Shown here piece after piece: positions 52,056 to 64,000 of a stretch of DNA of 64,000 nucleotides (position 1 is the stretch's first letter; each line of letters starts with the position of its first letter). Position numbers and translations under genes: made by a program. Origin of the DNA: Hyphomicrobiales bacterium (lineage in GTDB: Bacteria > Pseudomonadota > Alphaproteobacteria > Rhizobiales > Beijerinckiaceae). The stretch covers positions 19,453 through 83,452 of the forward strand of contig QBLV01000014.1 of the NCBI GenBank assembly GCA_003241815.1, in the 5' to 3' direction. Under the pieces are notes generated by a model. That model had not been told where the DNA came from and ran no database searches. It was given only the letters and a program-made list of their open reading frames with translations.

Positions 52056-55000
52056 TCAGCGGAAATCGCGCGTTTTGACCTTGATCGTGTCGATGTGGAG
52101 GTCGGGGATGAAGATGTCGCGGGTCCGCACGGTCCTCGATGGCTGGCCGCGTGGATCGGGCGTCGGTGAGCCGTGATGAAACTCGTCGCCCCGTCCATGG
52201 GGCAACGGAAAGGCGGTGTCGCGTTCACCGACGCTGGCCAGCTCCGCCGAAAGATCTGTCAGCCGCTGTGCGACGAGATGGACCACTTCGCCCTCGCGCT
52301 GGACGCGGCCGCGCACCGCGATCATGCCGGCCGACAGAATTGTGCGGCGGTTTTGCTCGAAGACCTTGGGCCAGACCACGAGGTTGGCGATCCCGCTCTC
52401 GTCTTCGAGCGTGATGAACATGACGCCCTTGGCGCTGCCGGGCCGTTGCCGCACCAGCACGATGCCGGCCGCCTCCAGCCATCGGCCGTCCTTTGCGTCC
52501 ATCGCCTCCTGGCAGGAGACCATACGACGGCGGCGCAGTTCCGGGCGCAGGAACGAGACCGGATGGTCGCGCAGCGACAGGCTGATATGCCGGTAGTCCT
52601 CGACGACTTCACCGCCCGCCGTCATCGGGCGCAGGATGACGGCCGGTTCGGCGACCTCGGGCACGATCTCCGTCTCGCGTGCCGACGCAGCGGCGAAGAG
52701 CGGAAGCGGCTCGTCGCGCAGCGCCTTGATCGCCCATAGCGCCTCACGGCGTGCCAGACCGAAGGGCGGGCGAAACCCGTCCGCTTCGGCGATTTGGGTG
52801 AGCGCCGCGACGGGCACGCCGGCCCGACGCCAGAGATCATCGACCGAGCCGAAGGGCTGGTCCGCCCTGGCCGTGACGATCGCCCCGCCGTGGGCATTGG
52901 CGAGGCCTTTGACCATGCGCAGCCCCAGGCGAACGGCGAACCGCTCCTCGCTGCCGGTGGGCTCGAGTGTGCAGTCCCACCGTGACGCGTTGGCGCAGAC
53001 CGGCCGGATCTCGACGCCATGATCGCGCGCGTCACGGACGATCTGGGCCGGCGCGTAGAAGCCCATGGGCTGGCTGTTCAGCAGCGCGGCGCAGAAGATT
53101 TCCGGGTGCCAGCATTTCAGCCAGGCCGACGCGTAGGCGATCAGCGCAAAAGAGGCTGCGTGGCTTTCCGGAAATCCGTAACTGCCGAACCCCTCAAGTT
53201 GCTTGAAGGTCTGCTCGGCAAACGCCTGCTCGTAGCCGTTGGAGACCATGCCGGCGATCAGCTTGTCGCGGAAATGCGAGACGCCGCCGGTGAACTTGAA
53301 GGTGGCCATCGACTTGCGAAGCATATCGGCCTCTCCGGGGGTGAAGCCGGCGCATTCGATGGCGACGCGCATCGCCTGCTCCTGAAAGAGCGGCACGCCG
53401 AGCGTCTTGCCGAGCACTTTCTCCAGTTCGGGCTTCGGATAGTGGACGGGCTCGAGGCCCTCCCGGCGACGAAGATACGGATGCACCATGTCGCCCTGAA
53501 TCGGACCGGGCCTGACGATCGCGACCTGGACGACGAGATCGTAATAGGTGCGCGGCTTCAGGCGCGGCAGCATCGACATTTGCGCCCGGCTCTCGATCTG
53601 GAAGGTGCCGAGCGTGTCGGCTTTTCGGATCATCGCGTAGGTGCGCGGGTCCTCGGCCGGGATGGAGGCGAGATCGAGATTGACGCCCTTGTGCTCGGCC
53701 AGGAGATCCAGCCCTTTCTTCATGCAGGTCAGCATCCCGAGCGCCAGGACGTCGACCTTCATGAACTTGAGGGCGTCGATATCGTCCTTGTCCCATTCGA
53801 TGACCTGCCGGTCCTTCATCGCGGCCGGTTCGATCGGCACGAGGTCGTCGAGCCGGTCATGGGTCAGCACGAAACCGCCGGGATGTTGGCTGAGATGGCG
53901 CGGCGCGCCCATGAGCTGCCGGGCGAGGTCGAGCGTCAGGCGAAGGCGGCGATCGGCGAGATTGAGGTTCAGCTCTTCGACGTGCTTCTGTTCAACGCCT
54001 TCCTCCGACCAGGCCCAGACCTGCGACGACAAGGTGCCGATCAGGTCCTCTGGCAAGCCGAGCGCCTTGCCAACATCCCGCAACGCGCCCTTCGTGCGAT
54101 AGCGGATGACGGTCGAGCAGAGCGCGGCGTGGTCGCGGCCGTAGGTGTCGAACACCCACTGCATGACGATCTCGCGCCTCTCATGCTCGAAATCGACGTC
54201 AATGTCGGGCGGCTCGCGCCGCTCCTCGCTGACGAAGCGCTCGAAGAGAAGATCGTTGCGGCCGGGATCGATCGACGTGATGCCGAGGACATAGCAGACC
54301 GCAGAGTTGGCGGCGGATCCACGGCCCTGGCAAAGGATGTCCTTCGATCGCGCGAAGCGGACGATCGAATTGACGGTCAGAAAATACGGCGCGTAATAGA
54401 GCTTCTCGATCAGCCGAAGCTCATAGTGGAGCGCGGCGGTCACGCTGTCAGGCACGCCTTCGGGATAACGCTCGACGGCGCCTTCCCAAGTGAGCTTCGC
54501 CAGCGTCTCCTGCGGCGTAAGGGCAGGATCGTCACGTTCTTCGGGATACTGGTAGGCCAGCTCGTCGAGGCTGAAGCGGCAGCGGTCTGCGATCTGCAGG
54601 GTTCGGGCGAGCGCTTCGGGATAGCGGCTGAAGAGACGGTGCATCTCCTCGGGCGGCTTGATGTAGCGGTCGGCGTGACGCTCCCGGCGGTCGCCGATCG
54701 TGTCGATCGTGACGTTGTGCCGGATGCAGGAAACGACGTCCTGAAGGATGCGGCGGGCGGGCTCGTGGAAGAGGACGTCGTTCGTCACCACGGTCGCGAC
54801 CCGCATCTGGATGGCCAGGTTCGACAGCTCGTGAAGGCGGAGCTGGTCGTTGGGGCGGCGACGCAGTGTCAAAGCCAGGTAGGCCCGATCGCCAAACGCA
54901 TCGCGCAGGCGGCGCAGCCGAAGGCCGCATTCGTCATCGGCGAGATCCGGCACGAGCACGGCGATCAAGCCTTCGCCGTAGGCCACGAGGTCCTGCCATT

Positions 55001-55328
55001 CGAGCACGCACTTCGCCTTTCCGCCGCGCCGCTTGCCGAGGGACAGCAGCCGGCAGAGTCGGGAATAAGCTGGTCGGTCGGTTGGATAGACCAGCACAGA
55101 CATGCCGTCGGTGAGGTCGAGACGGCAGCCGACAATCAGGCGAACCCCGGTTGTTTTCGCCGCCTCGTGAGCCCGGACGATGCCGGCGAGCGAATTCCGA
55201 TCCACCACGGCCAGCGCTTCGATCCCGCCGAGCGCGGCCTGGGCGAACAGCTCCTCACAGGACGACGCCCCTCGCAGAAAGCTGAAATGCGAGGTGACCT
55301 GAAGCTCGACGTAACGGGGCTCGCTCAT
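52056..55328 (-). CDS. dnaE2: Error-prone DNA polymerase DnaE2 (ImuC)
   Basis: 1090 aa from [22 protein letters not shown] (PHP domain) with Pol III alpha core motifs. ATGA overlap with the imuB stop. Confidence 0.95.
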
Positions 55329-56845
55329 CCAAACACCCCGTGGATGAACCAGCGGTGCGAACCCGTGGCGGTGTCCTCGCCGTCGCCGGCGCGAAACAGC
55401 CAGTAGCGTTCGCCGGCGTCGTCCTCGACCCGGAAATAGTCGCGGACGGCGGCCAGCTCGGCATCGCGCTTCCACCATTCGCCGAACACGCGCTCCGGAC
55501 CGTCGCCACGCCGAAGGCGGCGGCGGATGCCGCGCCAGGTGAACGACACCGGTGGATGGTCGGGAAGCAACGCCACCGTCTCGACCGGCTCAGGGGCCGG
55601 CAGAAGGCGGGAGGGCCGCGGCCAATGGCCGGGCCAACCCGCTCCCGTATCGGCCGCCATCGCCGGGATACGACAGACAGACCGCTCCGGAACATCGCTG
55701 GCGACCGGTGCAAGCCGATAGAGGGCACGCTCGCCCACGCGGTTCATCAAGGTGTCGATGAGATCGGAGACGTCCGGGGTGCTCTCCTCGACCAGCGAGC
55801 TGACGATCTGCTTGCGCTCGAGCGGCTCGGCGACGCTCGCCGCAAGTGTCATCACCTCGATGCCGAAGCCGGGCGAGATGGTTTCGATTTTGTCGCACAG
55901 GAGGCGCGTCAACCGCTTCGCGTCGCGGACCGGCGTGGCCATGCCGACCCGCACGGCCTGGGCCCGGCTGTCGACGCGATGGCAGATGAGATCGAGCCGG
56001 CGAGCGCCGAGGCCGCCTGCCTCCAGGCGTTCGCAGAGCTGGGTGACGAGCTTGCCGATGTAGCGGGCGATGGTCTCGGCCGCGCCGATCGGTTCGGCGA
56101 AGGCGCGGCGTACCTCGATGAGATCGGCCGGGCGAACCGGCTCGATGAGTTCTGCCGCGGCGCCCAAGGCCTGGTCCAAACGTCTGCCGAGTTCGGGGCC
56201 GAAGCGAAGGGTGAGCGGCGCGCGCGGCTGTGCCAGAAGATCGCCGACCGTACGGAAGCCGAGCGTGCGCAGCGCCGCGATGGTGCGAGCCGGAATGCGC
56301 AACGCCTCAAGCGGCAACCGCTCCACGACGGACGGCCCGTGGCCCTCTGGCGCTATGACGGCCGGCTGCGCCGAGAACCGGGCCAACGCGTGGGCTGCTC
56401 CCCAGGTGTCGGCGATCGCGCCTCTCGCGGCGATCCCCGACATGGCGAGGCGACCAATTAAGCCGTCCAGCATGACGGTTTCACCGCCGTGGAGGTGATC
56501 GGCCCCTGTCGAGTCGATGATAAGGCCGTCAGGCGGATCTGGGGCGACGATTGGTGCGTAACGGAGAAGCCACACCGCCAGACGCTCAAGCGCCTCGGCG
56601 TCGGCTGGCGGATCGGCATCCTGCACGAGGAGACCCGGCACCAGGACCTGCGCCTTGGTAACGGGCATGCCGGCTCGCAGGCCGGCGGCCTGGGCCGCAG
56701 CATCCGCCGCCAGCACCACCCGCCTGTTCCCGTCGCGGCCAATTAGGACGAGCGGCGCCTCAGCCGGAGGCGCCGCGTCGCCAGCCTTCCGCCGAAGCCG
56801 GTCCGTGGACCAGTTCGGCAGGAAGAGCGAGACGACCCGTGTCAT
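55325..56845 (-). CDS. imuB: ImuB, Y-family polymerase-like protein of the mutagenesis cassette
   Basis: 506 aa from [19 protein letters not shown], with GGAGG upstream. Position is between imuA and dnaE2. Confidence 0.9.
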
Positions 56846-57512
56846 CGCACGCCTCCAACTCGAAATCTGCACTTTCACCCGCTCGCGCGCGGATAAGTTC
56901 AACTAGCCAGCGTGCGCGACCCACGCCGGGAACGGGTAGCGGCGTCGAGGGCAGCACGGAGACGCGCCAGCGCGTCATCGCCGCGGTCGGCTGGCCGAAA
57001 TCCGTCGCTTCCGTTTGTCGTCGCCAGCGCCGCAGGGCGATTCCGAGCGAGCCGCTGCCTTCAGCTGCCAGCTGCAGGCGTCTCGACGCCGTCATCGAAA
57101 GGCGAGCGACCTCGCCGATTACGGCCCCGAGGCCGCCGTGGCGCAATCCTTCTTCCATACAGGCGAGCACGGTCTTGTCGTCGCCGGCTTCGAGGTAGAT
57201 CACGCGGTCGCTTGCGAGGCCCGCCTGGGCAATGGCGGGCGCGAACAGGTCGGCGCGCGTGATGCACCAAAGGATTTTGCCCTTGGTGCGGGCGGCAAGG
57301 CCTGCGCCGAACGACGCAGCAGCCGCGCCATCGACGGCGCCGTTACCTCCGCCGGCGATTTCATGCAGCGCGCCGAGTGCGAGGCCACCGCCAGGAAGTC
57401 GTGAGTCTACCTCGGTGATCCCGAAGGGGAGTACCGATTTGGCGCGCCGGCTTCTGCCTTCGATCTTCTCGATCTGCGCGCGCAATGACTCTATGGCGGG
57501 CTCGGGCCGCAA
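56760..57512 (-). CDS. imuA: ImuA (RecA/SulA-like) protein of the mutagenesis cassette
   Basis: 250 aa: ...LPFGITEVDSRLPGGGLALGALHEI... Apparent TTG start. Overlaps the imuB start, as is common. Confidence 0.85.
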   Translation of the reverse strand: MRPEPAIESLRAQIEKIEGRSRRAKSVLPFGITEVDSRLPGGGLALGALHEIAGGGNGAVDGAAAASFGAGLAARTKGKILWCITRADLFAPAIAQAGLASDRVIYLEAGDDKTVLACMEEGLRHGGLGAVIGEVARLSMTASRRLQLAAEGSGSLGIALRRWRRQTEATDFGQPTAAMTRWRVSVLPSTPLPVPGVGRARWLVELIRARAGESADFELEACDDTGRLALPAELVHGPASAEGWRRGASG

Positions 57513-57727: not shown

Positions 57728-59803
57728 ATGCGAATCAAACATGTCGAAATCGAAAACTTCAGGCTTCTGCGGCATGTCGCGATTGGGCTGGAAGAGAGAA
57801 CGACGCTCATTGTCGGGCGCAACAACAGCGGCAAGACCTCAATCGCAGAGCTTTTTCGACGGCTCCTTTCCGAGCGAGCCCTGTCGTTCAAGCTCGAGGA
57901 TTTTTCTCTGGGATGTCATGAGTGCTTCTGGACGGCCTTCGATGCATTCCGTGGCGGCGCTGCACAGTCCGACGTTCTAGCTCATCTCCCATCGATCACC
58001 ATCACGCTCGATATCGCCTATGATGTCGATGCTCCTGACCTCGGACCGCTCAGCGATTGCATCATCGATCTCAATCCGGATTGCTCGGACGCTCGTCTCG
58101 TTCTCACGTTCGGAGCCCGAGCGACAGCGGCCGAAACGCTTTTCGCGGGGATCGTGGCGCCGGGTGACGACATCGCCGCTGACCGTCTTGCTTTGTTTCG
58201 TGCTCTCGGGAGCCGACTGCCGGCGGCTTACGCCTCATCGCTCGAAGCGGTCGATCCCAATGATCCGACCAACCGTAAGAGTCTGGAGCCCAAAACTCTC
58301 ACCGCGCTGATCCACGGCGGCTTTATCAACGCGCAGCGCGGGCTTGATGATGACACCCATCGTGAGCGCGATGTGCTGGGCAAAGTCGTGGAGGTGCTGT
58401 TTCAGTCAGCGCTGACCGATCCGCTGGACCCGGAGAAGCGCACGACTGCGGAACAATTGAAGGCAGCCGTGGAGCAGATCCAAGGCGATCTGCACGCGGG
58501 CTTCAATGCAAAGCTGACCTCGTTGCTGCCCACGTTCGATTTATTCGGCTATCCCGGCCTAGCTGACCCCGGCCTCGTCACCGAAACAAGTTTCGATGTC
58601 GACAAGCTCCTAAATGACCACACCAAGGTCCGGTATGTCGGCGTCAACGGCGTCACGCTACCCGAGACATATAACGGCCTGGGCGTCCGCAATCTCGTCT
58701 ACATGCTTTTGCAACTGCTGCGCTTCTTTCGGGAGTACCAAGCTACGCCGGCAGCCGCTGGGGTACATTTGGTGTTCATTGAGGAGCCTGAGGCTCATCT
58801 GCACCCCCAGATGCAGGAAGTTTTCATACGTCAGCTCGATCAGATCGCGAACGCATTCGTTTCGCAGTTAAACGAGAACCGTCCTTGGCCCGTCCAGTTC
58901 GTAGTCACCACGCATTCTCCGCATATGGCGAACGAAGCACGCTTCGAGGCGATGCGGTATTTCCTGTCTGTCGCCGACGGCGAAGGCCTTCGACGTTCCG
59001 TCGTCAAAGATTTGCGACAGGGCATGGGAAACGCGACAGCGCCTGATCGAGAATTCCTGCATCAATACTTGACCCTGACGCGTTGCGATCTGTTCTTCGC
59101 AGACAAGGCTGTTCTGATCGAGGGTACGTCGGAGAGGCTCTTACTCCCGGCGATGATCCGTAAGACCGACGCGGCCGCCCCCGGTGAACCGCAGCTTGGC
59201 AGCCAGTACCTGACGGTGATGGAAGTGGGTGGTGCCTATGCACACCGGTTTTTCGACCTTCTCTCTTTCCTCGAATTGCGTGCGCTGATCATCACCGACA
59301 TCGACGCCGTTAAGCCAAATGAGCAGGGCAAGCGCTTGGCCGTGCCCGTCGCGGAAGGCGAGTTCACCAGCAACGGCTGCATCAAGGCGTGGTTCGATAA
59401 TGCGGTGTCGCCGGCTGCCCTTCTAGCCAAGGCGCCCGCTGACAAGATTGTTGGCTGTCGCCGACTGGCCTACCAGGTTCCGGAGGAAGATGGCGGCCCC
59501 TGCGCACGTAGCTTCGAAGACGCGTTCATTCTAGCCAATCCGGAGCGTTTTCCGCTCGGCGACGGGGACGTCGCCGCTCTCGCTTACCAGCATGCGGCCG
59601 AACAGAAGAAGTCGAGCTTCGCCCTTGAGCATGCGATCGAACATACCGATTGGACCGTTCCTCGTTACCTCGCAGAGGGTTTACGCTGGCTCGCGCAGGG
59701 CAATCCTGCCCCTGTCGTGCCGCCGCCCGCTGTCGCTGTGCAGATAGTAGCGGGGCTTGCCGGCGTGGAGGTGAATGTTGCCGAGGTAGGCGACAATGGC
59801 TGA
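57728..59803 (+). CDS. gajA: OLD-family ATPase/Toprim nuclease (class 2, GajA-like)
   Basis: 691 aa with Walker A GRNNSGKTS, Walker B/D-loop LVFIEEPEAHLHPQMQ, TTHSPHM, Toprim Glu AVLIEGTSERLLLP and DxD IITDIDAV. Confidence 0.8.
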   Translation: MRIKHVEIENFRLLRHVAIGLEERTTLIVGRNNSGKTSIAELFRRLLSERALSFKLEDFSLGCHECFWTAFDAFRGGAAQSDVLAHLPSITITLDIAYDVDAPDLGPLSDCIIDLNPDCSDARLVLTFGARATAAETLFAGIVAPGDDIAADRLALFRALGSRLPAAYASSLEAVDPNDPTNRKSLEPKTLTALIHGGFINAQRGLDDDTHRERDVLGKVVEVLFQSALTDPLDPEKRTTAEQLKAAVEQIQGDLHAGFNAKLTSLLPTFDLFGYPGLADPGLVTETSFDVDKLLNDHTKVRYVGVNGVTLPETYNGLGVRNLVYMLLQLLRFFREYQATPAAAGVHLVFIEEPEAHLHPQMQEVFIRQLDQIANAFVSQLNENRPWPVQFVVTTHSPHMANEARFEAMRYFLSVADGEGLRRSVVKDLRQGMGNATAPDREFLHQYLTLTRCDLFFADKAVLIEGTSERLLLPAMIRKTDAAAPGEPQLGSQYLTVMEVGGAYAHRFFDLLSFLELRALIITDIDAVKPNEQGKRLAVPVAEGEFTSNGCIKAWFDNAVSPAALLAKAPADKIVGCRRLAYQVPEEDGGPCARSFEDAFILANPERFPLGDGDVAALAYQHAAEQKKSSFALEHAIEHTDWTVPRYLAEGLRWLAQGNPAPVVPPPAVAVQIVAGLAGVEVNVAEVGDNG

Positions 59804-61562
59804 CGGTCCAGAGAGCCCCGCTGACGCTGCTGGTCGCGTCGCGCTTGAACGGATGTTCGCCTGCCTTGACGAAGGCAGAAGTTTTCGGTTGGAGGCGGGC
59901 GCTGGTGCCGGCAAAACCTATTCACTGGAAAGGGCCCTTCGCCGGCTGATTGACGGACGAGGGACTGACTTGGTCCGCCGCCGCCAGCAGGTCGGCTGCA
60001 TCACTTACACGAACGTCGCCAAGGACGAGATTATCTCGCGCATTCAGGCTCACCCGGCCGTGCGGCCGGAGACGGTCCATGGCTTCTGCTGGTCGATCCT
60101 CCAGGACTTTCAGGCAACATTGCGGGGATTCGTGCCGCAACTTCCCGGCTGGCCGGAAAGGTTAGAGCCCGCTGGGGGAATCGGCGCTCGTAGAGTTCAT
60201 TACGAACTGGGTTACCCGAGCGTCAGCGAAGACCAGGTGACCATTCGGCACGAAGACGTGCTCGCGTTGATGATCGAGGCAATGGCCCTTCCGAAGTTTC
60301 GCTCCGTCCTGACCGCACGATACCCAGTGATTCTAGTCGACGAGTACCAGGACACGGACGCTGCCTTTGTCGATGCGTTGAAGACCTGGTTTCTCGATAA
60401 GGGCGAAGGACCGCTGATTGGTCTGTTCGGGGATCATTGGCAGAAGATCTACGGTGACGGGTGTGGATCCGTGGAGCACGCGGCGCTTGAGGTGATCGAT
60501 AAGAACGCAAACTTTCGCTCGGTGGACCCGATCGTACAGGTGCTGAACAGAATGCGGCCGGAACTGCCGCAAATGGTGAGCGAGCCCGATGCGCCAGGCG
60601 AGGCGCGCGTCTTTCACACAAACGCTTGGCCGGGCGCACGGCGGACCGGACAAGGCGGAGGGCATTGGACGGGCGACACGAGCCCAGAGGCTGCGCGAGC
60701 CTATTTCAGCCACATCAAGGAACGGCTGAGCGATGAAGGATGGGACTTCGCGGTTGGCAAGACCAAGATATTGATGCTCAGTCACAGCGTGCTCGCTCGC
60801 GAGCAGGGTTACGCAAGCATCCCGTCAATCTACGGCCAGTTCAATGATCCGTGGCTGAAGAAGGACGATCCGCACATCAAGTTTCTCGCGGATCACCTTG
60901 AACCTGCCTGTGCTGCGTTCGAGGCGCTCCGCTACGGCGAGATGTTCGAGTCCTTTGGAACGGGGATGCCCCGCATTCGGAAGCATTTGGACAAGGTCGC
61001 ATGGGCCGAGACGATGACGGCGCTGATGGCGTTGAGGAACACCGGATCCATCGGCGATGTGATCGATTTTATCGCCGCGCAGCCGCATATGAGGCTGCCG
61101 GACGCGGTCGAGGAACGCGAGAAGAAGCTAGCAGACGTCGGTGCCGAACCTGTCGAGGGCGAGTCGCGGCGTGTCACTCAGTTGCGCAAATTGCGGCAGG
61201 TCGCTTACGCAGAACTGATAGCGCTGGATCGGTTCATCGACGGTCACACGCCGTTCGCCACGAAGCATGGAGTGAAGGGAGCGGAATTCGAGAACGTGCT
61301 CGTTGTGGTCGGCCGAGGATGGAACAAGTATAATTTCGCCCAGATGCTCGAATGGAGCGACGGTGGGCCGCCGGCCGACAAAGTCGAGTTTTTCGAGAAC
61401 AACCGAAACCTGTTTTATGTCGCCTGCTCCCGGCCGAAGGTCCGCTTGGCGCTGCTCTTCACACAGATTCTGAATGCAAACGCCTTGGGAAAACTGACGG
61501 CTTGGTTTGGCGCAGCGAATGTCATTGCACTCCCGGCGGACCCGGAGGTCGCGCAAGCATGA
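59796..61562 (+). CDS. gajB: UvrD/Rep-family SF1 helicase (GajB-like)
   Basis: 588 aa with Walker A EAGAGAGKTYS and motif II ILVDEYQDTD, and the late motif KHGVKGAEFENVLVV. 8-bp overlap with the OLD gene. Confidence 0.8.
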   Translation: MADGPESPADAAGRVALERMFACLDEGRSFRLEAGAGAGKTYSLERALRRLIDGRGTDLVRRRQQVGCITYTNVAKDEIISRIQAHPAVRPETVHGFCWSILQDFQATLRGFVPQLPGWPERLEPAGGIGARRVHYELGYPSVSEDQVTIRHEDVLALMIEAMALPKFRSVLTARYPVILVDEYQDTDAAFVDALKTWFLDKGEGPLIGLFGDHWQKIYGDGCGSVEHAALEVIDKNANFRSVDPIVQVLNRMRPELPQMVSEPDAPGEARVFHTNAWPGARRTGQGGGHWTGDTSPEAARAYFSHIKERLSDEGWDFAVGKTKILMLSHSVLAREQGYASIPSIYGQFNDPWLKKDDPHIKFLADHLEPACAAFEALRYGEMFESFGTGMPRIRKHLDKVAWAETMTALMALRNTGSIGDVIDFIAAQPHMRLPDAVEEREKKLADVGAEPVEGESRRVTQLRKLRQVAYAELIALDRFIDGHTPFATKHGVKGAEFENVLVVVGRGWNKYNFAQMLEWSDGGPPADKVEFFENNRNLFYVACSRPKVRLALLFTQILNANALGKLTAWFGAANVIALPADPEVAQA

Positions 61563-62185
61563 CCAACTGCGTCCGTCCCGTCACAACTGTCGCTGCTTCA
61601 AAGTCTTTATCCACGGAAGAACTGGATTTCACGGGACTCTCAGAACCCGACGCGCGCAACGTGAGGGCGGCCATCGCCGCTGGCGATAACTTTCACGGCT
61701 ACATACCGTCGGAAAGTCTGCACTTCACCATCCGGAACTACCGCCGTCTCGCCTCTCTCCAAGCGCTCGAGGCGGCTTGGCTCGACGCGTATGTACATGC
61801 TGCGCACTTCCAGCCTTATGGTGTCGAGGCGATCAAAGCTGTGTTTGATGCGTGTGACCGGGATCGTCTTCTTGAGTTGAAGCCGCTGGGCGAAATTGCC
61901 AATATTGAGCGTGGTGGACGGGTGACCCTTTTCCGCGGTTGCGCAGGTCCTGTCCACCACATGGGCATGTCGTGGACGCCATCGCTCGATAAGGCGATCT
62001 GGTACGCGGCCCACCACGCCGAATTCTACGGACTGGACAATCGGGCGGTCTACGTGTCGACAGTCTCGGTGGCGGAAATCTACTGCAGCCTCGACCACTA
62101 TGATTGCGATGTCATTGTCCACCCGAGCAAAGCATGGCGCGTGGAGGTGCCGGCTGAGGAGTATCGATTGGACCGCGATCGCTGA
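61559..62185 (+). CDS. Unknown protein, third gene of the OLD/UvrD operon
   Basis: 208 aa from MTNCVRPVTT, with ATGA overlap onto the helicase stop. No family recognised. It contains LFRG...MSWTPS...DCDVIVHP. Confidence 0.6.
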   Translation: MTNCVRPVTTVAASKSLSTEELDFTGLSEPDARNVRAAIAAGDNFHGYIPSESLHFTIRNYRRLASLQALEAAWLDAYVHAAHFQPYGVEAIKAVFDACDRDRLLELKPLGEIANIERGGRVTLFRGCAGPVHHMGMSWTPSLDKAIWYAAHHAEFYGLDNRAVYVSTVSVAEIYCSLDHYDCDVIVHPSKAWRVEVPAEEYRLDRDR

Positions 62186-62203: not shown

Positions 62204-63367
62204 CTACGATCTGCGCGATGGCCTGGTCACGCGGGTTCTGGTTGAGCGTGGAAGAGCCGGTGGCTTCGTGGCGGTTAGAAGCGCCTCCTCGGCCAATTTC
62301 TGCGGGCTCATGTACTCCATGCGCTCTGCGATGTAGGCACCGAGGAGCTTTGCATCGTTCGCGCTCGGCATCGGTTTGGCATAGAGGAGCGGGAGGAAGG
62401 ATGTAAGCGCCAGACGGTAGAGCGGCGCGGCGTATTCGAACACTGTCCGTTGGGGAAGCGGAAGGATCAACTTCGTGCGGTCGACTGGATTTCCGTGCAG
62501 GAAATCGTTTCTGCAGTCGTAGAGGGCTTGATAGACCCAAGACGCCAGCGTTCGTTTGACCTTGGTCTTTCCCCCCGTGTCATGGGCTAGCGCGGCGCTG
62601 GCCGCGATTGTCCACGGCGTCTTTTCGATCAGCTCGAACACCTTGTCGCGATTGGCTTGGCCGCTTCCGCCGGGATGGACGAGGATCTCGAATGCACTGA
62701 CCCATAGCGAGACCACGCGCCCGACATCATAGAACGTGGTGTCCGTTCCGGCCGGTAGGAGCGAGGCGTTATAGGCCATGTTCAACGAGCGCATAAGAAC
62801 GATGTCCTCCCATGCTGCCTCGGCGGCCTCATAACGCCGCATCCAGCGCGCCAAGAGCGCGGCAAGCAGCGGTTGGTCGATGTCGTTTTCGTCGACGGGC
62901 GTGCGGAAGATTGCGGGCGACGACTGACCTTTGAAGCTTGCAACCTCGTGTGTGCCAAGGATCGCCGGCGTGCTGCCGATGACATCTTCATAGTGGCGAT
63001 CGAGCATCCAAGGATAGATCGCGAAAGCCTCACCGAACATGACGCGATGTCCGCGACGATGACGCAGTTCGAGCGCCCGACCACAGGTCGTTGTCGCGAT
63101 CGCGATGAGATCACGGAAGCTCGCTAGCGCGGAAATGTCGAGAAAGGCCGGCGGTGCTGCTGAATGCACCAACAAAACGGAGGGCTCGAACTTCTGCCCG
63201 AAATTGTCGGAGAACCGATTGAGGAAGCGGCGGAACATGGGCTGTGCGCGCTTGATCGCGGCAACTCGCGGGTCATGGGCCGGCGCGAGTGCGGCGATGT
63301 CGCAGCCAATCGCCGCCTGGAGCGGGATATTCGGCAATACGAAGACAGGGGTCCAGCCAGCGGTCAC
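62204..63367 (-). CDS. Unknown protein with a C-terminal HEPN-like domain (RNDFLHG)
   Basis: 387 aa with a GTG start overlapping the upstream stop (TAGTG). It has VSLWVSAFEILVHP...LYDCRNDFLHGNP, and the Rx4H motif lies at 62495-62512. Confidence 0.6.
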   Translation of the reverse strand: MTAGWTPVFVLPNIPLQAAIGCDIAALAPAHDPRVAAIKRAQPMFRRFLNRFSDNFGQKFEPSVLLVHSAAPPAFLDISALASFRDLIAIATTTCGRALELRHRRGHRVMFGEAFAIYPWMLDRHYEDVIGSTPAILGTHEVASFKGQSSPAIFRTPVDENDIDQPLLAALLARWMRRYEAAEAAWEDIVLMRSLNMAYNASLLPAGTDTTFYDVGRVVSLWVSAFEILVHPGGSGQANRDKVFELIEKTPWTIAASAALAHDTGGKTKVKRTLASWVYQALYDCRNDFLHGNPVDRTKLILPLPQRTVFEYAAPLYRLALTSFLPLLYAKPMPSANDAKLLGAYIAERMEYMSPQKLAEEALLTATKPPALPRSTRTRVTRPSRRS

Positions 63368-63864
63368 TAGGCTGTCGCTTCGGGTAGATGAGCTTCAGCC
63401 TCTCTCAGGCAGCGATCCCAAAACGTCAGGGCTTCTCGGATTTTCGGGAGGATTGGTCGTCCCTCGGCATCGCGCAGCTTGGCGGAGTCGAAGGCAGCGA
63501 CATGCGAGACGCCATCGGGCACGCCGGGGTCGGCTACCACTGCGATGGTGTCGAAGGCATTGTTGCGAAGCTCAAGCCCGCCCTGGAACTCCTTGAGCAG
63601 CACGTTGCGCGCCGGCTCAATAAACTCCCGGAAAATCGGAGCCTCCTTCCACTCCCGCCATTTCGCTGCGCTCCAGGATTGGCGCCGGTCATCCGCGCAA
63701 TCGACCTTGTCGAACACGTGCCCGATGGACCGGAGCAAAGCGATGATCGCAATGTACTGCGACTGATATTCGGCGACTGGCCGCATCATGCTGTCGTAGC
63801 GCTCAAACCGAACGACAAGATCGGTCACGAAGTTGAGTTGCGCGCGCGCCACCAGCATGGTCAT
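63367..63864 (-). CDS. Unknown helical protein, middle gene of the HEPN operon
   Basis: 165 aa. Its ATG overlaps (ATGA) the stop of an upstream partial gene. No family recognised. Confidence 0.55.
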   Translation of the reverse strand: MTMLVARAQLNFVTDLVVRFERYDSMMRPVAEYQSQYIAIIALLRSIGHVFDKVDCADDRRQSWSAAKWREWKEAPIFREFIEPARNVLLKEFQGGLELRNNAFDTIAVVADPGVPDGVSHVAAFDSAKLRDAEGRPILPKIREALTFWDRCLREAEAHLPEATA

Positions 63865-64000
63865 AGCGCGCGGAACGCCGACTCGATGTCGGCGGCAGTG
63901 TTGCTGTCGTCGAAGCTGTGCAAGACGGCTCCGGTTTGCGTGCGGTCCCGGATCTCGATTTTCTCGGCCGTGTGATTGTAGGCGAAGACGTAGGTGTTCC
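63861..64000 (-). CDS. 3' end of an unknown gene continuing beyond the window (first visible gene of the HEPN operon)
   Basis: My own translation of the minus strand gives an open frame ending ...NTYVFAYNHTAEKIEIRDRTQTGAVLHSFDDSNTAADIESAFRAL*. The stop at 63861-63863 overlaps the next ATG. Confidence 0.45.
   Translation of the reverse strand, partial: NTYVFAYNHTAEKIEIRDRTQTGAVLHSFDDSNTAADIESAFRAL

Follow-up and report, generated by a model that had tools for sequence, protein, structure and literature searches.

Two probable modules in one overlapping operon: a predicted single-gene HEPN effector and a VCH_CASS14 gene pair in an alphaproteobacterial defence island

Gene organization of the operon

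Do three overlapping genes at the end of a 64,000-nt stretch of DNA (the window, which here means the whole stretch analysed) encode one defence system, or have separate genes come together in one operon? The three genes lie on the minus strand in the region 62204-64000. The last of them (62204..63367) starts with GTG and encodes a protein of 387 amino acids (aa), with an N-terminal alpha/beta part and a C-terminal predicted HEPN domain, which is predicted to be a ribonuclease (RNase) effector. The gene before it (63367..63864) starts with ATG and encodes a helical protein of 165 aa, while the first one (63861..>64000) is partial, with its last 45 codons and stop inside the window. Both junctions are overlaps of a stop and a start codon: ATGA between the partial gene and the 165-aa gene, and TAGTG between the 165-aa gene and the 387-aa gene. 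The original prediction, made from the letters of the window, described these genes as translationally coupled parts of one candidate defence module, and the coordinates of the open reading frames (ORFs) bear out the coupling. We read the locus as two autonomous mobile modules concatenated into one translationally coupled operon within an island, with a probability of roughly 0.55. The 387-aa gene plausibly acts by itself as a HEPN effector of defence or abortive infection, and the two other genes would be an accessory or toxin-antitoxin (TA)-like pair to which it has been joined.

Extension past position 64000, as the prediction had proposed, recovered the first gene from overlapping contigs. 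Several metagenomic contigs encode an identical 387-aa protein and are 99.9% identical to the window, and one public copy of the protein is named as coming from a Hyphomicrobiales metagenome-assembled genome. The 45 residues encoded in the window are identical to the C-terminus of a 113-aa protein on the extending contigs, and the full-length protein (contig L001) belongs to Pfam family PF18315, VCH_CASS14 (E=1e-27, 96.6 bits versus a cut-off of 26.7); it is called CASS14 below, and the 165-aa gene is the second gene of the CASS14-165 pair. VCH_CASS14's structure (PDB 3IMO), solved in 2013 for an orphan integron-cassette protein of Vibrio cholerae, is an alpha+beta sandwich that forms a dimer, contains a conserved hydrophobic pocket and has a basic surface. 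The N-terminal region of the 387-aa protein and both of its partners had been reported to resemble nothing recognisable, which held for that region and for the 165-aa protein but not for the first gene, now assigned to PF18315.

The 387-aa gene in other genomes

A search with the 387-aa protein gave 693 matches in a 90%-clustered database, and the family comprises at least 1124 clusters at 50% identity (E<=0.001). Nearly all members are 360-400 aa long and were aligned over their full length; most are alphaproteobacterial, and others come from Acidobacteriota, gammaproteobacteria and myxobacteria. For the gene neighbourhoods, we took the best 80 of 140 confirmed matches, with one genome scanned per species, and the partner genes (165 and CASS14) were sought within 8 kb by tblastn and hidden Markov models. 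The results showed that 78 of the 80 species-level loci have neither a 165 nor a CASS14 gene within this distance, and that the solo status extends to relatives of 79-80% identity. A 165-family gene was found within 8 kb at two loci only: in L008, a 165 gene (46% identity) is located directly upstream of the 387 gene (78% identity), and in L005, from Xanthobacter, the CASS14-165 pair is located 3 kb downstream of the 387 homologue without being adjacent to it.

The genes found directly upstream of solo 387 genes are mutually unrelated, encoding a UvrD helicase, PIN_8, Mrr, LysR and HAD hydrolase proteins, an integrase, an acyl-CoA dehydrogenase and the PADLOC candidate PDC-S54. A conserved upstream partner was sought and rejected, since the upstream ORFs are similar only within small groups and carry unrelated domains; for an upstream RNA antitoxin or repeat, the 78-nt intergenic region on a Sinorhizobium plasmid leaves no room. 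In two Bradyrhizobium loci (L051, 6760-7998; L077, 6753-7973), the 387 homologue starts where PDC-S54 (E=4e-145), a candidate single-gene system, ends, or no more than about 15 nt away.

The commonest neighbour cluster of the 387 homologues occurs at just 14 of 81 loci. The recurrent neighbours are AbiEii/AbiEi, AbiV, the YhcG nuclease, type I restriction-modification (R-M) systems, Gabija and integrases, and AbiH is also found nearby. On a conjugative Sinorhizobium plasmid the 387 homologue is monocistronic among VapBC, AbiV and AbiH, and on pRL8, where it is also monocistronic, its neighbours are a DUF488 gene on one side and an IS30 element on the other; in total, homologues were found in 15 plasmid records, nine of them conjugative. 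The GC content at third codon positions of many homologues is well under that of the flanking ORFs. A phage origin of the genes is unlikely because the scans of viral sequences were nearly empty: the 387-aa protein had no match in 50,697 phage records and matched only two IMG/VR contigs, and the 165-aa protein matched none. The 387-aa gene is autonomous, mobile and defence-island-associated.

Just downstream of many close 387 homologues we also observed a conserved, convergent pair of genes, the first of about 228 aa and the second of 510-560 aa (14 and 11 loci, respectively), for instance in L007 (9149-11400, minus strand), L005, L006, L009-L011, L015, L021, L022, L030 and L144. Neither gene has a Pfam or PADLOC match, and the pair may be another uncharacterised island module.

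The CASS14-165 pair in other genomes

The full triad was found in three flanking contexts, namely this island, Agrobacterium rhizogenes and groundwater contigs. In A. rhizogenes, the CASS14, 165 and 387 proteins have 97, 94 and 89% identity, and the triad is flanked by TacAT and a type I R-M system on one side and by a TIR protein on the other; in the groundwater contigs the identities are 96, 76 and 77%, and the flanks are YhcG and a HigBA-like pair. The 165-387 combination also occurs without CASS14, in L008 and in L095 and L096/97, where a HipA kinase gene or a 226-aa gene precedes it. In L097 (3595-6661), each gene overlaps the next in the order HipA-family kinase, 165 (at its start) and 387, and the three toxin-type or partner genes form one tightly coupled array.

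The pair is likewise found apart from the 387 gene. It is followed by a 229-aa Fic gene in several alphaproteobacterial loci resembling integrative and conjugative elements (ICE-like loci) and, with different flanks, in Pectobacterium; at other loci it is followed by a 223-aa and 251-aa pair that adjoins imuB-dnaE2, and the 223-aa protein is DUF5677-like. A CASS14-161 pair lies between ArdC, an anti-restriction protein, and a large ParB_N protein (L089, 279-4406; L090), a context that looks like the leading region of a conjugative element and raises, as an alternative, an establishment or anti-defence role for the pair. In Acidibrevibacterium, a CASS14-166 pair forms a stand-alone two-gene insertion amid housekeeping genes, with a GC content of 0.59 versus 0.67-0.71. 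The 165-aa gene is also found on its own, preceded by Hachiman or by a CAP12-type TIR gene, and CASS14 likewise by itself or paired with a different second gene, for example DUF2513 next to VapBC in the cell-wall/division (dcw) cluster; in Methylocystis (L152, 4001-5644), CASS14, DUF2513 and VapBC (RHH_1/PIN) are inserted between murC and murB of this cluster. The CASS14-165 pair is an autonomous module. Because the 387 gene is solo at 78 of 80 loci and the pair stands alone elsewhere, the operon probably contains two independent modules rather than an obligate three-gene system, and the original prediction of a single three-gene unit is not supported; the synteny that it had proposed to examine is seen as a recurring triad in three contexts, but not at the great majority of 387 loci.

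In a neighbour-joining tree of the 165 proteins, built without support values, the type of downstream partner was largely clade-specific, and the 387-linked 165 proteins were found at two distant places; in a 387 tree, likewise without support values, the 165-linked members were found at three separate positions among solo genes. Judged from these sequences, the adjacency of 165 and 387 has arisen at least twice. CASS14 is 80-97% identical across the 165-linked loci, versus 46-94% for the 165-aa protein.

These distributions bear on a further reading, an obligate three-component system in which all three products, CASS14, the 165-aa and the 387-aa HEPN protein, would form one defence system, for example as sensor, adaptor and effector. 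The overlapping stop and start codons agree with it, as do the 165 subclades that track the downstream gene and the triad kept as a unit between different flanks in Agrobacterium and groundwater, down to 76-77% identity; but both partners are missing at nearly all 387 loci, close relatives included, the 387 gene is monocistronic on plasmids, and 165-387 exists without CASS14 just as CASS14-165 exists without 387. We therefore consider an obligate system quite unlikely.

At the other extreme, the three genes could be functionally unrelated cargo that was packed together by coincidence in a compact island. From an integrase gene beyond the window to the 387-aa gene, all genes run in one direction and either overlap or are separated by at most 50 nt, whatever their function; both modules are autonomous elsewhere, and ICE-like loci carry the two modules 2-4 kb apart, pointing to shared hot spots. 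Yet the junction is kept across three flanking contexts, and the 165-387 adjacency arose at least twice, in L008 with a distant 165 gene beside a close 387 homologue, which makes mere coincidence highly unlikely. We favour the joining of two autonomous modules as the account that explains the data most simply; the join was stable enough to spread to several islands, and it formed more than once, which hints at a functional benefit without obligatory partners. For annotation, the locus teaches that tight translational coupling in a compact island does not by itself define a system.

Possible roles of the CASS14-165 pair

CASS14 (113 aa) and the 165-aa protein would constitute a separate two-gene cassette able to exist alone, and the likeliest role of the pair is that of an accessory regulatory or TA-like unit rather than an obligate subunit of the HEPN enzyme. 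The pair is repeatedly positioned directly upstream of toxin-type genes (the 387 HEPN gene and Fic), and this is a lead to its function. Neither the VCH_CASS14 structure paper nor the other literature found links CASS14 to the 165-aa protein or to HEPN or Fic genes downstream; the pair gives a first genomic context for PF18315 and ties this fold to toxin-type effectors in mobile islands.

A stronger form of the TA-like role is an addiction array that stabilises the island, in which the 387-aa protein, and possibly the 165-aa protein, are toxins, CASS14 and/or the 165-aa protein neutralise them, and the whole stands in series with a HigBA-like pair. HEPN and Fic are classic toxin domains and directly follow the pair, TA modules (HigBA-like, TacAT and VapBC) adjoin the pair or the triad, CASS14 comes from a Vibrio integron cassette and has a basic dimer surface, and the stand-alone insertion in Acidibrevibacterium resembles a TA cassette. 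However, solo 387 genes have no adjacent antitoxin candidate, as the short intergenic region on the Sinorhizobium plasmid illustrates, and CASS14 and 165 are both found singly. TA and abortive-infection roles are also compatible, hence an addiction array would in part be a relabelling; we regard it as improbable.

Promiscuous antitoxin or adaptor modules are known to pair with many toxin types, as in the Panacea/PanA concept. The CASS14-165 pair resembles them in that it precedes toxin-type genes differing by lineage (HEPN, Fic and the DUF5677-like 223-aa gene), a likeness of genomic arrangement; it differs in that the CASS14 and 165 genes also occur alone. By this comparison, the pair might be a promiscuous front end, a sensor/regulator or neutraliser, that captures HEPN RNase, Fic AMPylase-type and DUF5677-like effectors. 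Although we consider this rather unlikely, it would amount to a new modular defence or TA architecture, would give the VCH_CASS14 fold a role, possibly as a small-molecule sensor acting through the conserved ligand pocket, and could make the 165-aa protein a HEPN-like pseudo-enzyme (RNx3K).

The second gene gives some hints in this direction. The 165-aa family comprises 88 homologous clusters, and in its alignment (A2) G48, D55, W69, W72, R86, K91 and G95 are invariant. The AlphaFold2 model (pLDDT, the predicted local distance difference test score, 90.1) is a helical bundle with a beta-hairpin insert, and the protein has no Pfam, NCBIfam, PADLOC or PDB-sequence match. When the model was compared with the PDB by Foldseek, no match was significant, and about ten of the top 50 were HepT-type HEPN toxins (E 0.5-3.4, template modelling (TM) score 0.25-0.41), including 6m6u, 5yep, 7bxo, 8xeh and 8xdj. 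The family has an invariant R86-N87-x3-K91 at a helix end, in a HEPN-like position with K instead of H. From its sequence and model, the 165-aa protein may be a HEPN-like domain with Lys replacing the catalytic His, which we offer as a lead and not as a finding. An origin as a paralogue of the 387 HEPN domain was rejected (hhalign probability 0.3%).

Similarly, in HepT-MntA systems (type II/VII TA) a small gene precedes one for a helical protein of about 130-165 aa, as in the CASS14-165 pair, but CASS14 has no nucleotidyltransferase match (its sole Pfam match is PF18315) and the 165 family has R-N-x3-K rather than Rx4-6H. The pair was thus rejected as a HepT-MntA system: no nucleotidyltransferase, no Rx4-6H at that site, and matches to the HepT fold that are non-significant.

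The 387-aa protein as a likely HEPN protein

The candidate catalytic motif of the 387-aa protein is RNDFLHG (Rx4H; residues 286-292, 62492..62512, minus strand). We aligned 51 diverse members of the family with 32-59% identity to the window protein (alignment A1, in which numbering is that of the protein minus 1), and found that R286, H291 and G292 are invariant in 51 of 51 sequences and that N287 and F289 are conserved in >=90%. A bare Rx4H is expected by chance 0.73 times per shuffled sequence, and about 0.1% of shuffles contain RNxxxHG. Upstream of the motif (A1) are two conserved blocks, FRSLNMA and LWVSAFEIL.HP. The original prediction had named loss of this motif in homologues as the result that would speak against it, and the conservation points the other way.

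The AlphaFold2 model of the protein, built on the 51-member alignment, has a pLDDT of 94.5 and a predicted TM score (pTM) of 0.92. By DSSP on this model, the N-terminal domain (about residues 1-165; 62873..63367, minus strand) is alpha/beta, with the conserved residues W4, P11, D31, R33, F51, P61, R84-D85, P118-W119 and D163 (A1 numbering), and no relative of it was found in Pfam, PDB or Foldseek searches. The predicted HEPN domain, delimited by alignment and model, extends from about residue 166 to 366 (62270..62872, minus strand). Its helices span 185-200 (containing FRSLNMA), 211-228, 273-289, which ends in the motif, and 308-323 (A1); an insert at 229-272 (A1), made of a helix and a beta-hairpin, separates the second and third helices, and a Glu conserved in >=90% is located in helix 211-228 (A1). 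In the predicted model, the motif closes helix 3 and is followed by a loop into helix 4.

HEPN domains are characterised by an Rx4-6H motif with a polar N, D or H right after R (PMC3710099, Anantharaman et al. 2013), and by a four-helix core in which the motif ends helix 3, an insert lies between helices 2 and 3, and helix 2 carries an acidic residue (PMC3710099). The family has this motif, with R286/H291 invariant and N287 in >=90%, and the predicted model has this topology at the level of secondary structure; in addition, several close homologues carry the UniRef label 'Apea-like HEPN domain-containing protein'. On motif and topology, the 387-aa protein is likely a HEPN protein, so the proposed Rx4H signature in its C-terminal part is upheld, with an invariant R/H in the canonical position of a confident predicted model. 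Its further attribution to an Abi-type or Cas13-type HEPN context is not sustained: the resemblance is one of motif, and profile and fold searches link no specific HEPN family. A catalogued system was looked for, as the original prediction had advised, and neither the 387-aa nor the 165-aa protein corresponds to any in Pfam, NCBIfam or PADLOC; for the 387-aa protein, Pfam, NCBIfam, PADLOC 2.0 and PDB sequences, including a profile search, gave no match.

Several points weigh against our reading. With Foldseek, the full-length 387 model had no significant match in the PDB (best E 0.58) or among the BFVD viral structures (best E 0.1; TM about 0.1). Pfam HEPN_Apea matched just 2 of the 51 members, at E>=0.033, and the window protein and four close homologues had no Pfam match even at E<=10; the PADLOC models had no match to the window protein at E<=1 and nothing relevant among the 51 members. 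As no profile, fold or PADLOC match was obtained, the HEPN call rests on motif and topology. The enrichment of defence genes was judged on sampled loci rather than by a genome-wide statistic, and ORF calling was crude in high-GC loci. The occurrence of CASS14 and 165 singly means that the pair is not clean as a simple toxin-antitoxin, and the recurrent tight or overlapping junctions of the triad and of 165-387 argue for some functional interaction.

The missing HEPN matches could also mean that the 387-aa protein is no HEPN RNase at all but another kind of helical enzyme, or a binding protein, to which the conserved R and H would belong. No HEPN gave a significant fold or profile match, and hhalign against the possibly HEPN-like 165 family found nothing; on the other side stand the invariant RN..HG with a polar residue after R, the acidic residue in the expected helix, the helix 2-3 insert and the motif at a helix end, and the divergent HEPN domain of ApeA itself needed GT-align before its closest relative was found. 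We judge a non-HEPN protein extremely unlikely.

Proposed mechanism and comparison with known systems

If the first module is a HEPN effector, the 387-aa protein would be a self-sufficient single-polypeptide HEPN RNase with its N-terminal domain packed against the C-terminal HEPN domain. By analogy with ApeA, DARNA/PD-T7-3 and PrrC/RloC, it would be held inactive in uninfected cells; dimerisation through the HEPN domain would create a composite R286/H291 active site, an infection-linked cue would be sensed through the non-catalytic domain, and the enzyme would then cleave RNA of the cell, with tRNA anticodon loops or mRNA as the most probable targets, leading to abortive infection. We infer from these analogies the RNase activity, autoinhibition, activation by infection and defence phenotype of the protein, and any interaction with the CASS14-165 pair is conjectured in the same way. 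A sensor or regulatory role of the N-terminal domain is suggested by ApeA and DARNA; as searches gave no structural relative for the domain, any infection cue that it senses may be new. If the family is a true active HEPN defence enzyme, it would be a widespread single-gene system overlooked by current catalogues.

ApeA, which is about 580 aa long, assembles into decamers or dodecamers; its chain comprises a helical N-terminal domain, a Mid domain and a HEPN domain that is split. Activated by 5'-phosphorylated deoxydinucleotides, it cuts tRNAs in their anticodon loops, and its authors needed GT-align to find the closest HEPN relative of its divergent HEPN domain. Like ApeA, the 387-aa protein is a single polypeptide with a non-catalytic N-terminal part and a C-terminal divergent Rx4H HEPN domain, and is found in defence islands. 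It differs from the three-domain ApeA in its shorter length and in its N-terminal domain, which spans about 165 aa and is alpha/beta. The protein was rejected as an ApeA on the grounds that it has no PF18739 or PADLOC match and lacks the three-domain architecture of about 580 aa.

The other single-gene HEPN Abi proteins, DARNA/PD-T7-3, PrrC/RloC, AbiV and AbiF, share with it the combination of a HEPN RNase and a sensing or regulatory domain. In DARNA/PD-T7-3, an abortive-infection protein, HEPN is at the N-terminus and is followed by a Pds5-like C-terminal domain; the protein senses ssDNA bound by the single-stranded DNA-binding protein SSB and then cleaves tRNA anticodon loops, and its N-terminal HEPN domain contrasts with the C-terminal one of the 387-aa protein. 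In PrrC and RloC, HEPN is fused to ABC ATPases (PMC3710099). None of the PADLOC models for PrrC/RloC, AbiV, AbiF or DARNA matches the 387-aa protein, and AbiV-type HEPN genes are separate neighbours of 387 homologues in several loci. By its sequence and model, the 387-aa protein would belong with a known kind, the single-protein HEPN Abi-type effectors, with an N-terminal domain that appears to be new.

The island and its flanks

The locus was described in the original prediction as part of a defence island of low GC content. The setting is supported by the adjacent Gabija system, by an integrase and a HigBA-like pair past the end of the window, and by homologues located near defence genes. 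The GC content is 0.58-0.61 over 57.5-64 kb versus 0.64-0.70 over 50-57.5 kb, with a step at about 57.5 kb; low GC at the locus is confirmed, but the tract also spans Gabija and is not confined to the operon, so it marks the whole island. On the extending contigs, HTH_37 and Gp49 genes (the HigBA-like pair) lie upstream of CASS14, and an HTH_17 (AlpA-like) gene and then a 471-aa P4-type tyrosine integrase gene lie further upstream. The order of the island is thus integrase, AlpA-like gene, HigBA-like pair, CASS14, 165 and 387, followed by the convergent Gabija genes. Contigs with differing left flanks part about 230 nt upstream of the integrase. Taken with the GC step, this divergence points to an island of about 9.4 kb, whose left end, placed by the divergence of the contigs' flanks, would be at about L001:6425. 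A search for the attachment (att) sites of the island yielded neither a tRNA nor a convincing direct repeat in the flanks.

The Gabija system is on the plus strand and consists of GajA (57728-59803; PADLOC E=6e-288) and GajB (59796-61562; PADLOC E=7e-265), with Pfam matches to AAA_15, OLD-like TOPRIM and UvrD. Outside the operon, a gene for a 208-aa protein (61559..62185, plus strand) overlaps the GajB stop by 4 nt and looks like an apparent third gene of this Gabija operon; its protein has no Pfam, NCBIfam, PADLOC or PDB-sequence match, and the gene is missing from the Gabija locus of Xanthobacter (L005), where the locus identity is 82-83%. The stops of the 208-aa and 387-aa genes are convergent and 18 bp apart, so that the distance given earlier between the two operons is exact when measured to the stop of the plus-strand gene after GajB. 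The operon was rejected as a part of Gabija, since both Gabija genes, GajA and GajB, are present in full on the other strand and the 387 family occurs mostly without Gabija.

The island abuts an imuA-imuB-dnaE2 mutagenesis cassette (window 52056-57512, minus strand). Contigs L001, L003 and L004 share the imuA-side flank and differ on the integrase side, and in Pseudaminobacter (L087/L088, 1-4998) the CASS14-165 module is located directly downstream of imuB-dnaE2. The adjacency to imuB-dnaE2 may mark a hot spot of insertion shared by these loci, or the cassette may be co-mobile.

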